Part shown: positions 1 to 62,732 of the stretch, piece after piece
Layout of the letters: each line of letters begins with the position of its first letter
Position numbering within the stretch: position 1 is the first letter of the stretch
From: Euglena gracilis
Lineage: Eukaryota
DNA length: 64,000 nt
Direction: 5' to 3'
Assembly (NCBI GenBank): GCA_039621445.1
Contig: CP154954.1
Coordinates: 41,347,572 to 41,411,571 of the forward strand
Program-made: the position numbers and the translations under genes
Notes under the pieces: model-generated
What the model saw: only the letters and a program-made list of their open reading frames with translations
What the model was told of the DNA's origin: nothing
The model's database searches: none

Positions 1-1303
1 TTGTGGATGCAGAAAGCGGGGGGGGGGGACCAGACCCTCTCCTCTGCCTTCCCTCAAGAGCCAACCCCAAATTCTCACCCAGAACGTTTGCTGGGAAATC
101 TCAAACCCAATGCCGCTATTGGGCGCTGAAGGTGCCTTTTTTTGTTTGCAACAAACCAATTCTCTTCTTTTTCTGACACCAAACTCAAAAAAAAAGGCCC
201 GATTGTTGCAAAAAAAATTAAAAAACACCAGACAAAAACTCAACCCTCCAAGGAGTGCCCAGCCAAGGCTTCCAACCCGCCCTCTGTGGGTTTGCCCTCC
301 CCAGAGGGATGGCACACCCCAGTCTCCAGGGAATCCCTTGAGCGTCCCCCCCACCGGAGGGGGTCAGCTCAAGAAATTCCCTGCCCCAGGCCCATGGGCA
401 CCGGGCGCCAGCCCCGGGCTTGAGCTTGGGCTTTGGCTGGCGCCAAGGATCGTAAAAAAACAACAACAAAGAAGAATAAAATTGACCCAGTAATATTTCA
501 TACAAACACATGCATGTGCACATCTTGGTACATACAACATATTATCCGGATAAAATGGCAGGAAACAAGAATGACGCAATGACTGAGGGAAAACTGAATT
601 AAAAATTCCAAGTTTGGGAAAATTGATGATTCATCAATCTGCAGGTGGCGAGGGACTGATAACAAGTTAAAGCCCCCCCCCTGCCCCAACTCCTCTCAGC
701 ACCCCCCAATTGGCAACCCTGGGCCTTCCCTTCCCAATCATTGAACATCCAAAATGAGATTGCTCCGTTTGAAACGAAACTTTGAAAATCTGGCCTGGCC
801 AAACAAAGATGGGGCGCAATCTCATGTTGTGTGAACATGCACCACCAATGCACATAGACACCATTTACCATCCTTGGGCATCAATTGATGGCGATGTCCT
901 CTGTTCACCGCAGCTTGGTCTTCAACTTCCTCCACGCCCGGCGCAGGGCGTTTGGTCGTGTGCAGGGCGCAGCACTGGGGCTGTGCGGCACAGGGGGGGG
1001 GGGCATTGAGAAGGATACCCCATCCCAAAGGTAACCACGCCTGTCTGATTTCAGGACATACTCCCACCAAACAATCAATTTAACTGGAAAAAATAACAAC
1101 AGACTGTTCCAAAAAAGAACAGAAAATTCATTTTTTTTTGCGTTTCTTCCCCCCCCAAAACTCTTATTTAATGCATTTTATGCCGTTTTTGTGCATATTG
1201 CAAAATCGCATTTTGGAGATTTGTTCAACAAATTGGCAAAAAGAGGCCAAAAGAAGCACAAAACACCAGGGAAGGGTTTTTTCTGGGTTTCAGGGGTTCC
1301 CAG

Positions 1304-1532
1304 CAGGGGTTTTTTTTTAAGACCAGGGGGTGGGAGCCCCCCCCGGGGGAGATCCGGGGGACCAATCAATTTCCCCAAAGAATGACCAAAAATTGTGAAA
1401 ATGCAAAAAACAGCACCTTGTTCAAAAATTTCCGGCGCCTTCGGCGTCGAAAAGTGCATCCCACCACCCCCTGGGGGGACCCCCCCAGGGGGAGGGGGGG
1501 CTCGGCGTTCAAGACTAAAAAAAAAACCTTTG
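1304..1532. mobile_element. hAT-type MITE, family A (degenerate)
   Basis: CAGGGGTTTTTTTTTAAGAC...GACTAAAAAAAAAACCTTTG; flanks GTTCCCAG / GTCCCCAG. Confidence 0.6.
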
Positions 1533-60400: not shown

Positions 60401-62732
60401 GGGTCGGATCTGGGTGCTTTAGAGTGCCTGCCCAGGCCGGCAACCCCTCCCCTGGGTGGGGTCAGCCTCGCCTTAATCTGATCGAAACCCTTTTGCGCGT
60501 CTTTCGTTGCCATAAAACCTTCCTCTCACGATTCTCAAGCACTCCCAAACCTTCCGAGGTTTCCATCTTTTTTTGCACGGCGCTTGTGTTGGATAGTGTC
60601 GAGGTCCTCGTTTGGCCCCCCCAGCTTTTCAATTTCCGTTGCCATCTGTCCAAAGAAAAAGTCCCTTGGTGGTGAGAAGACGAAACGAACTTCCGGGAAC
60701 AAATGTGATCAGCTCGGCACTCCCCTGTGTGGTTCAGGGTGTGCGAAGGAGGCGGACTTCTCCCTCGACACAGCAGTGCTGGGGCGCCTCATCCACTGCG
60801 ACAATGTCCCGCCCGGGCCGCCCCTGACGCCGATGCGCCCGGAAGCCTCGGCAGCCGTGGTTTTCCGAATATCTGCGGGAGGCGTATCCTTGGGCTGCCG
60901 TGGGGGGGGGGCAACGCCAAGAAGTTATCCTTGACTGCGGAGTACCATCTGCAGTGCATAGCACGTTTCAGGGATTAAAAAAAAAATGGACTTTGTGCCG
61001 TGGGATAATTGGTTGGAAGGAAATCAGACCCCAAGAGGAGGAAGCCAGATTCGGAACCCTCCAAAGGTGCAGACCACACCCCCTGCAAAAAAAAGGAAAT
61101 TTTTTTTCACCCCCCACCCCCACCCCTTCCCCGTGAAAAAGGAAAAAAAAACTTCTCCTCACCCCCCACAGGATGATCCTGGTCCTGGGTGGGGGCGTCG
61201 CAGCCTTCAGGGGGAAGCCAACAACCCTGCCCTGGGGGGCACCATCCACGCGGTGCAAGCCTTGGGGGACGCCCGGCCGTCCAATCCGGGACCAGCCTCC
61301 GCCGCTGAGCTGCTTCGAGCTGCCCCCCGACGACGTGGACGACTGGCCGCTCGAGGGCTGCTGCTTCTACCTGGCGCCCCGGCCGGCCCCGGGCGTCGCT
61401 GTGTGCTGTGTGCCGGAGGAGGAGGGGGGGGGGGGGCAGCCTGCGGGGGACCGGGACAGCGGGGGCCGGCCAGCCCCCCGGGGTTCAAGGGGGACGCCGA
61501 GGGGGAGCGGCGGGCGGTCAACATCATCCTGCGCTGCGGCGGCCTCTGCGTCCCGTTCTACGTGGACGACGTCACGCACGTCATCGTGCACGACGCCGCC
61601 GCCCCCGGTGTGCCGGTGGCGGGTCAGTGAGACGGGCATCTGCCGATGATGTCGCCATGGTGGCGTGGGGCGGGGGGGGGGGGGGCGAGTCCATTCATTT
61701 TCCACAGAGACGCGGCCGGAGCTGGTGTTCCTCCTCACCACCCACCCCTCACAATTCGTGCTGCGGCCCGCGTGGCTGTACCAGTGCTGGGACTGGGCTG
61801 CTCTTTGGTCCCTGTGACTGCCGTTGGGGACGGCTTCCGTGTCATCGCCTTTCCTTCCGCAAACAACGGGGGGTCTGGGGGGTCTGGGTGCCCCCAGCTG
61901 GCTCCTGCGAACCCGATGAGGTTGTTGTGCGTTCCTCAGGTGTATACCCCCTCCAGAAACGAACCGCCCAACCTGTCAGAGTCAAATTTCATTGATTTTC
62001 CCATGAATGGCCCTCGCCGGAAACTGTCAGGGTCTCGTCAGGGTCCCCGGCACTCACCACCCTGCCGGGTGACAATTTTTTCCGGGGAATTTCCGGGGAG
62101 TGCGGGGGGGGGGGGGGGGCAGCGCCCGTGCATGGGACCATTCTCCATCAACTTCTGCCCATGGCCGGATGCCGGGCCAACAAACAGCAGCCTGGCAGCA
62201 ACACGAAGCGGCTCTGCCCGGAGGCCCCCTACTTCCGGTTCCGCGCCCCTCGCCAGCAGTACTCCAGCATCGCCACCACCGCCGCCCCCGACCCCGGGGA
62301 AGCCACCGCCGCCCCGGCCGTGGGGCAGCCCCACCGGGGAGCTGCGCCCAGAGCGGCGGCAGCCACACGCGCGCGCGCGCGCGCGCACACACACACACAC
62401 ACACACACACACACAAACACACACACACACACACACACACACACACACACACACACACACACACACACACACACACACACATGCGGGGAGAGACAGTGCT
62501 GGGTTGAACTGTTGGGCCATGGCGCGGCGTGGGTCAGATCGTTTGAGAAGCTCAGGCAGGTGAAAGTGGGAGGCTGCCACGGCGACGCGCCGCTCTGTCA
62601 GCGGCTCCGCCGCCGGCCGCAGGCCGGGACGACAGCCCAAACGCTGCCCGAAAACGAGGAGACGACGGCCAGGAGGACGGGGGGGCTGGGCCACGACGCA
62701 CAACCGCAGCCCCCAAAGCCAACGAGGCGGAG
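57414..62732 (+). CDS. Multi-exon gene encoding a protein with at least three BRCT domains (TopBP1/Rad4/Cut5-like); probably continues downstream
   Basis: Exons 57414-57481, 57954-58079, 58347-58425, 59048-59107, 59460-59521, ~59635-59676, ~59853-59985, 60738-~60848, ~61280-61380, ~61474-61607, 61708-61790, 62200-62322 and 62582-62732 give [75 protein letters not shown]...[46 protein letters not shown]...[24 protein letters not shown]...[10 protein letters not shown]...IILRCGG...VTHVIV...[22 protein letters not shown]. These contain three sets of BRCT hallmarks (GG, THLI, K-x-x-A, W-L-x-x-C). Confidence 0.85.
59198..59368. repeat. Intronic (CA)n/(CACG)n microsatellite; (TG)-rich patch at 58100-58325
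   Basis: Direct reading; both lie inside BRCT-gene introns. Confidence 0.9.
62365..62481. repeat. Intronic (CG)n(CA)n microsatellite
   Basis: Direct reading. Confidence 0.95.

Follow-up and report, generated by a model that had tools for sequence, protein, structure and literature searches.

A BRCT-repeat gene with two kinds of intron

The stretch analysed here (the window) is 64 kb of euglenid nuclear DNA from Euglena gracilis, contig CP154954.1. Near its right end lies a BRCT-repeat gene, most of whose introns are of the nonconventional, non-GT-AG type, and the window also holds MITEs (miniature transposable elements with inverted repeats) flanked by 8-bp target-site duplications (TSDs). 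A first-pass annotation had proposed that the two are connected, with the local MITEs, taken to be hAT elements, as the source of the introns. Our analyses rest on the window sequence, public RNA data and the literature; statements about cited papers refer to those sections of them that were drawn on here. The RNA data cover positions 57100-64000 and comprise two contig runs (presumed to be RNA-derived) and two raw RNA-seq runs. By composition and repeats the window falls into three zones: a gene- and MITE-rich part at 1-16 kb, a repeat zone, and the gene at 57.4-62.7 kb.

Ten clean RNA joints and one joint with an extra letter define 11 introns in the BRCT-repeat gene. Its spliced exons give 387 codons without a stop, from an ATG at 57414 through 62733, and the transcript goes on past this position into a GTGTGT-started intron that leaves the window. 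Pfam searches with single exons returned PTCB-BRCT (E 5.6e-7, above the cutoff) and BRCT; two adjacent exons match successive parts of the BRCT profile, and the intron at 59543-59893 splits a BRCT profile between its positions 40 and 46. As judged by RNA, 3/11 introns are GT-AG and 8/11 are not. All four GT-started introns of the gene open with GTGT (58080, GTGTCT; 59986 and 61608, GTGTGC; 62734, GTGTGT), suggesting a strong extended 5' splice consensus of the conventional class.

Single-base differences between the window and the RNA contigs were seen at 57451, 59894, 61739, 61751 and other positions, among them an extra or changed letter where 59542 is joined to 59894; the assembly and the RNA runs probably differ here by strain or allele. 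The introns at 58080-58346, 59108-59459 and 62346-62602 contain long (CA)n/(GT)n tracts. In the interior of the intron at 58426-59047, a segment (58486-58947) reaches contig depths of about 960 and 450 and has a pair of subterminal motifs, near 58527 and 58901, that form hairpins, suggesting that a different, non-CAG repeat is nested there.

Geometry of the nonconventional introns

For each intron, all placements allowed by the slide of the junction were tried, and pairing was tested from position +4 against position -6 or -7. A terminal helix at these positions is present in seven of the eight non-GT-AG introns and in none of the three GT-AG introns. In six cases the helix leaves 3 nt at the intron's 5' end and 5 nt at its 3' end (N3/N5), and in one case 3 and 6 nt (N3/N6). 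The strict form, N3-CAG...CTG-N5 followed by a purine, occurs in 3/8 introns (58426-59047, 59108-59459 and 62346-62602), and three more keep the N3/N5 geometry with a broken letter code (CDG...CH'G), having AAG/CTG, TGG/CTG or CCG/CGG ends. The first base of the downstream exon is a purine after six of the seven helix-bearing introns and a C after 60810-61281. Minimum-free-energy folds of 60810-61281, 61791-62199, 62346-62602 and an intron predicted on the minus strand (8637-8879) pair positions +4..+6 with -6..-8. No back-joint between intron ends, as would be left by an RNA circle, was present among the 15 joints listed of 64.

The first-pass annotation had described introns of this kind as starting with 3 nt plus CAG, or a variant, and ending with CTG plus 5 nt. 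This description largely holds, in that eight non-GT-AG introns are seen by RNA, seven of them with the helix, but one listed intron had been misplaced. RNA mapping agrees with its junctions at 57482-57953, 59108-59459 and 61791-62199, whereas the intron placed at 62323-62581 is really 62346-62602, off by about 21 nt and still GCC-CAG...CTG-TCAGC.

MITEs resident in the window

MITEs were collected from exact and one-mismatch scans, family BLAST, fuzzy searches for terminal inverted repeats (TIRs) and a final table (Table 1). In seven of them the CAG...CTG or CAT...ATG ends are immediately bordered by an 8-bp TSD that is perfect and non-trivial, and two more have TSDs matching at 7/8 positions; the figure of over 15 given previously is reached (about 16) only if decayed copies are counted. 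Of 2229 CA-started TIR pairs, nine are flanked by an 8-bp repeat that has one mismatch or none; a control in which the right flank was displaced by 9 nt gave zero, and repeats of other lengths are fewer (four of 7 bp, one of 9 bp, none of 10 bp). One of the nine (24689-26734) is doubtful. By comparison, the mean number of matching positions between random 8-mers of the 1-16 kb region is 2.04, with an 8/8 rate of 0.0005. When TIR-plus-TSD pairs were sought without restriction, poly-G/C tracts, satellites and palindromes overwhelmed the output (AA, 23 vs 5 in the control; TT, 21 vs 11; GG, 6 vs 27): the clean signal comes from CA-started pairs only, and other starting dinucleotides give low-complexity or satellite noise.

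Several families have CAGG, a T-rich run and TAAGGA in common in their ends, suggesting a single type of transposase. When MITEs were folded with 3 and 5 flanking nucleotides, positions +4..+6 paired with -6..-8 in five of six minimum-free-energy folds, and the sixth formed two of the three pairs; MITE and intron folds are thus in the same register. All clean MITEs of the window lie within introns or non-coding DNA. Summed RNA-contig depth over the family D element is 8120 and 2960, compared with about 50-180 on most exon bins. Depth is 30-100 times that of the gene exons both at 62875-63336, over this element, and at 63799-64000, where another repeat lies at the window end. These two repeats are massively represented in the RNA-derived contigs, whether their source is pre-mRNA, read-through transcription or circles released by excision. 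In metagenomes, the TIR of family A and the paired TIRs of family D had 0 matches each.

With respect to superfamily, TSD length together with the CAGGG/CAGGC ends points to hAT. The ends of hAT elements such as Ac, hobo and Hermes are of the YARNG type, and their preferred target is nTnnnnAn. The CAGGG/CAGGC families fit the end motif; the CATAC and CATAG families do not. Counted by hand over the listed TSDs and the flank of 6910-7186, T stands at position 2 in 2/10 and A at position 7 in 4/10, so the target preference is not apparent.

The 3+5 spacing and the junction 8-mers

In the mechanism that we propose, the two populations would meet as follows. One is the introns, whose cuts flank the base of a terminal helix (as a rule CAG:CTG) at a distance of 3 nt on the upstream side and 5 nt (rarely 6) on the downstream side; the other is non-autonomous DNA transposons of 130-1100 bp with CAG (some CAT) ends and an 8-bp target duplication, which is the hAT pattern. 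Insertion into an exon would yield a pre-mRNA in which CAG...CTG stands between an 8-nt target and a copy of the same 8 nt. Cuts at -3 and +5 would then remove the element and exactly one target copy, restoring the reading frame in either orientation, so that an exon insertion would be spliceable from the start. The geometric argument (3+5=8), already made in the first-pass annotation, is sound. Its corollary of nearly harmless insertion in either orientation is permitted by the geometry. Under the published code (CDG/CH'G), splicing is not expected for the CAT...ATG families.

Remnants of a TSD were sought by comparing the last 5 exon and first 3 intron nucleotides at the 5' junction with the last 5 intron and first 3 exon nucleotides at the 3' junction. 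Eight introns fit the rule, namely the six RNA-backed N3/N5 introns and the predicted introns 8637-8879 and 8966-10867. Their scores are 6, 2, 5, 2, 5, 5, 5 and 5, a total of 35/64; the values listed previously were reproduced (6/8 for 57482-57953 and 5/8 for 59108-59459, 61791-62199, 8637-8879 and 8966-10867), and the corrected intron 62346-62602 also scores 5/8. When junctions were permuted among all eight introns, 234 of 40320 arrangements reached 35 (the observed pairing beats 99.4%), and 12 shifted registers gave 11-30. In seven introns, 33/56 junction positions match, compared with 58/182 flanking positions. Both junctions have a consensus of roughly GCnGY|R in common. The excess of identity is real but modest: within this window the expectation that it exceeds background is borne out by the full set, and is borderline for the RNA-backed introns and partly due to consensus (see below).

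Candidate introns on the minus strand

Two further nonconventional introns are predicted at 8.5-11 kb. The larger, 8966-10867, has MITE-like ends of its own, with 14 of the first 20 nt complementary and flanking 8-mers matching at 5/8 positions. The minus-strand gene predicted here gave zero homologues in a homology search and zero Pfam matches. At 4603-4803, a decayed element similar to family A is a candidate for a MITE that serves as an intron. It adjoins a piece of open reading frame (ORF) at 4835-5008, rich in GC at third codon positions (GC3), which is a candidate exon only. The other edge of this piece is the CTG+5 of the MITE at 5014-5467 (minus strand, ...CCCCTG GCCAG|AAG; 5009-5470). 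GC3 is 0.86 in the ORF piece and 0.88 in the BRCT-repeat gene, and falls to 0.48 in the DNA upstream of the MITE. Insertion of this MITE inside an exon is therefore disfavoured; more probably it marks where a larger intron or outron ends. For exon mapping in 1-16 kb, a codon log-odds scan had too little power with its training set of 387 codons.

Origin of the nonconventional introns

From the intron junctions, the ends and TSDs of the MITEs, the shared register of intron and MITE folds and the junction 8-mers, we infer that most nonconventional introns of euglenids go back to the insertion of CAG-ended transposons with 8-bp TSDs, the 3+5 spacing being matched to the 8-bp duplication. We put the probability of this reading at roughly 0.6. 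The mechanism is backed independently by gapC of E. agilis, in which the junctions of a strain-specific, recently gained intron bear direct repeats of eight nucleotides (Milanowski 2016, PMC4770533), exactly as an 8-bp TSD predicts. A bolder form of the reading, which we hold to be an even bet, is that the nonconventional splicing machinery of euglenids is a transposon-erasing device tuned to CAG-ended (hAT-like) elements with 8-bp TSDs: it would read the TIR hairpin in the pre-mRNA and cut 3 and 5 nt outside it, so that every exon insertion would be born a perfect intron. If true, this would explain the approximately 72% of E. agilis introns that are nonconventional, the spacers of 3 and 5 nt, the single junction consensus (the same TSD position) and the 8-nt repeat at the only dated new intron.

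Several results weigh against a transposon origin. In blastn searches with 12 introns (the 11 of the BRCT-repeat gene and 8637-8879), 0/12 match any MITE or other DNA of the window, which leaves the claim that the hAT families of the window made its introns without support; many near-identical intron copies at unrelated sites, as expected of introners, were not found among these 12 within the 64 kb. No MITE excised from an exon was seen in the RNA for 57100-64000, and no transposase ORF, whether of an autonomous hAT element with these TIRs, which the first-pass annotation had suggested looking for, or of any other kind, was recognised in 17.5-38.5 kb (ORFs read by eye, no Pfam scan). The nTnnnnAn target preference of hAT elements is not seen in the TSDs. 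The candidate exon between MITEs at 4.6-5.5 kb has no homologue in searches and nothing meaningful in Pfam (an all-library HMMER search gave three matches, all on its low-complexity middle). The 3+5 rule has exceptions, as 61376-61479 uses 3+6 and 59543-59893 has no helix. With the six RNA-backed introns alone, 28 of 720 permutations reach the observed score (p 0.039), register +6 (30/64) is close to register 0, and two introns (58426-59047 and 60810-61281) score just 2/8. Pairing 8-mers from different introns gives a mean of 3.07/8, compared with 2.04 for random DNA; different introns thus have a junction consensus in common, and part of the identity reflects this consensus rather than ancestry. 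Finally, the authors who described the gapC repeat attribute it to double-strand-break repair (PMC4770533).

The lack of resemblance between introns and MITEs, the 6-nt 3' spacer (tolerated in vivo and used by 61376-61479), the permutation result for RNA-backed introns, the score at register +6 and the cross-intron identity would all be at home in an account by coincidence, in which the 3/5 rule belongs to an RNA-processing enzyme unrelated to transposons, the MITEs are ordinary residents, and the repeats come from preferences of the excision machinery (pyrimidine|purine, GCnGY|R) or from intron gain by break repair, as already published (PMC4770533). We consider this account unlikely: it has to accommodate terminal trinucleotides and a sum of 8 that the two populations have in common, identity that is higher within introns than across them, a repeat of exactly eight nucleotides at the single documented young intron, and a predicted intron (8966-10867) with MITE-like ends and a 5/8 flank repeat, and break repair leaves the inverted ends unexplained. 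The transposon-to-intron mechanism could also hold with elements of another superfamily having 8 (or 8-9) bp TSDs. Merlin families with 8-bp TSDs have been reported in E. gracilis (PMC8101967), and TSDs of 8 or 9 bp would match the tolerance of 5-6 nt in the 3' spacer. The results on transposase and target bias likewise favour an element such as Merlin, and TSD length fits. The ends do not, in that Merlin ends start with 5'-GG, whereas the clean-TSD elements here start with CAG/CAT directly at the repeat, and CAGGG/CAGGC agrees with the YARNG ends of hAT; we regard this variant as quite improbable. A reversal of direction, with an older excision code under which only transposons that mimic it (CAG...CTG, 8-bp TSD) are tolerated in gene-dense, intron-rich DNA, most introns having arisen otherwise, would suit the position of all clean MITEs in introns or non-coding DNA. 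It would also suit the CAT-ended families that are predicted to be unspliceable, both clean copies of which lie outside exons (10206-10663 in a predicted intron and 35082-35505 in repeat-rich DNA). Survivorship nevertheless leaves unexplained both the 8-nt repeats of a newly gained intron and the 8-mer identity that persists at old ones, and exon insertions would still become introns; we judge the reversal very improbable.

How euglenid nonconventional introns arise and how they are removed are questions that have stood since the 1990s. If, as we favour, an 8-bp duplication has left its mark in the 3+5 spacing, their origin becomes a simple genome-wide test on public data for E. agilis and E. 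gracilis, and the class of transposon to seek is named. Alongside spliceosomal introners, DNA transposons would then have another way of making introns at scale, different in mechanism, in which the host reads the inverted ends of the transposon itself and not splice sites. Natural MITEs would, by the same reasoning, be predicted to be usable for engineering Euglena, as portable cassettes that remove themselves.

Other features of the window

The repeat zone includes a 163-bp satellite, present at 36906-48564 (about 72 copies, 95% matches) and 49302-55739 (about 39 copies, 89%) and making up nearly a third of the window; shorter arrays related to it are found at 33792-34343. At 21379-21586 there is an inverted repeat of 82 nt, perfect and with 44 nt between its arms, with related arms 1.3-1.4 kb away at 22819-22919. 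Pure microsatellites were found at 33236-33596, (AGAT)90, and 56918-57020, (CATC)26. On the minus strand, 15816-18110 is a stop-free frame of 764 amino acids with a collagen-like, proline-rich PGP/PAP repeat at one end and a PEPEPLDE repeat at the other. It overlies a G-rich tandem array with 9/18/27/54-bp periods and a GC content of 0.82, and may be a gene for a repetitive surface or wall protein, or merely a repeat. An Rfam search of the window gave zero matches.

Table 1. Coordinates of the gene, introns and MITEs in the 64-kb window. Introns are written as 5' spacer-end...end-3' spacer; 8-mers, matching positions between the two junction or flank 8-mers.
Feature	Position	Strand	Ends and TSD	Basis and remarks
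BRCT-repeat gene	57414-62733	+		12 exons seen; RNA joints, open frame, Pfam
Conventional GT-AG introns	58080-58346, 59986-60737, 61608-61707	+		RNA joints; no terminal helix
Nonconventional intron	57482-57953	+	GGT-AAG...CTG-GCCCT	RNA joint 57480->57953, slide 3; helix.||||:||||| at N3/N5; 8-mers 6/8
Nonconventional intron	58426-59047	+	GGC-CAG...CTG-CCCGT	RNA joint, helix; 8-mers 2/8
Nonconventional intron	59108-59459	+	GCG-CAG...CTG-GCGGG	RNA joint, helix; 8-mers 5/8
Non-GT-AG intron	59543-59893	+	no CAG/CTG, no terminal helix	departs from the rule; joint in data set X2 only, one extra letter
Nonconventional intron	60810-61281	+	CGC-CCG...CGG-CCGTC	N3/N5; C:G middle pair; pyrimidine opens next exon; 8-mers 2/8
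Nonconventional intron, 104 nt	61376-61479	+		RNA joint; helix at N3/N6 (3+6=9)
Nonconventional intron	61791-62199	+	GAC-TGG...CTG-GCAGC	RNA joint, no slide; two G:U pairs; 8-mers 5/8
Nonconventional intron	62346-62602	+	GCC-CAG...CTG-TCAGC	RNA joint 62343->62601, slide 3; perfect 10-bp helix; 8-mers 5/8
Predicted nonconventional intron	8637-8879	-	GAG-CAG...CTG-CCGGC	rule fit and open frame only; 8-mers 5/8
Predicted nonconventional intron	8966-10867	-		rule fit and open frame only; two younger MITEs, 9188-9561 and 10206-10663, nested inside
Candidate MITE-as-intron	4603-4803	-		decayed family-A-like 4608-4800 (flank 8-mers 6/8) plus 3 and 5 nt, 201 nt, in frame
MITE, family A, 411 bp	7466-7876		CAGGGTTCGATATAAGGA (18/20); TSD GGGTAAAT 8/8	
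MITE, family A, second copy	9188-9561		TSD 7/8	
MITE, family A, short copy	1629-1758			in poly-G
MITE, family B, 454 bp	5014-5467		CAGGGGTTTTTTT; TSD CTTCTGGC 8/8	
MITE, family B copy	5127-5402		TSD 7/8	nested in 5014-5467
Family B relatives	6910-7186, 15013-15205			
1100-bp element	2953-4052		CAGGCTTCG / CAGACTTC; TSD GCCACGCT 8/8	3318-3904 nested inside
MITE, family C	10206-10663		CATACATCTCT...ATG; TSD GCTCGGAT 8/8	
MITE	12375-13121		CAGGCTTTT; TSD TATGGGGT 8/8	
MITE	35082-35505		CATAGCTGGC...ATG; TSD CCCCACTT 8/8	in repeat-rich DNA
MITE, family D	62897-63379		CAGGGAATTTCTTAAG; TSD GGGTCCAC 8/8	within the GT-started intron after exon 12
Decayed MITE candidates	4608-4800, 15013-15205, 21101-21722, 3318-3904, 20323-20475		flanks 6/8, 5/8, 4/8, 3/8 and 3/8	
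Decayed MITE candidate	6910-7186		flank 7/8, supposing a 3-nt deletion at the end	read by eye, not computed

Comparison with known systems

The RNA-backed introns of the window are ordinary members of the euglenid nonconventional class. They agree with those published (PMC3935182, PMC4770533, PMC12501133) in having borders other than GT-AG, a helix at the ends, CAG in positions +4..+6 and CTG in -8..-6, spacers that measure 3 and 5-6 nt, a downstream exon that opens with a purine, and direct repeats at the junctions. The N3/N5 rule, MITE origin, TIR ends and TSD-like repeats are known already. A MITE origin was proposed in 2014 (Milanowski 2014, PMC3935182), and the first-pass annotation was correct that both this proposal and the CAG/CTG positions are in print (PMC3935182, PMC12501133). 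The 2024 Mob DNA review 'Transposon-derived introns' refers to the CAG/CTG ends as TIRs and to the repeats at the junctions as 'TSD-like', and favours a MITE origin (PMC11282704). In knock-in experiments, splicing calls for 3 nt in the 5' spacer and 5 nt in the 3' spacer, where 6 nt is tolerated as well (Nomura 2025 PNAS, PMC12501133). The same paper reports splicing of nonconventional introns from a foreign exon after knock-in and junction direct repeats in 84.4% of E. agilis introns, and still calls the origin of the introns unclear (PMC12501133).

The specific 3+5=8 match and the identification of an element class appear to be new. In the sections drawn on here, the published papers on nonconventional introns name no transposon family, TSD length or superfamily; the window adds CAG-ended elements with 8-bp TSDs and the match of 3+5 to 8. 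The words hAT and TSD are absent from the portion of PMC12501133 covered, as are 'hAT', '8 bp' and '8-bp' from that of the review (PMC11282704), which there describes no element outside introns. Full-text literature searches and term look-ups in key papers returned no 3+5=8 link, hAT assignment or resident CAG-ended euglenid MITEs with 8-bp TSDs; the supplements of the 2016 and 2025 papers may bear on this.

Among transposons, the hAT MITEs of plants (e.g. PMC7385995) are likewise short and non-autonomous, with short TIRs and 8-bp TSDs; in the window, the label follows from TSD length and end motif alone, and no target-site bias was detected. The Merlin elements of E. gracilis are similar in having 8-bp TSDs (8-9 bp for Merlin in general) and differ in being autonomous, with a DDE_Tnp_IS1595 domain and TIRs with 5'-GG (PMC8101967), where the elements described here are non-coding and CAG/CAT-ended. 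The closest parallel in outcome is offered by the introners of Micromonas, Aureococcus, dinoflagellates and others (Huff 2016, as cited in PMC11170887; PMC11282704), which are also DNA transposons with TIRs and TSDs that create introns at scale, and in which use of the TSD restores the exon. Introners form recognisable near-identical families, of which no counterpart was found among the introns of this window, and are removed by the spliceosome at GT/AG-type sites derived partly from the TSD. In Euglena, by contrast, the excision machinery would measure its cut sites from the TIR hairpin.

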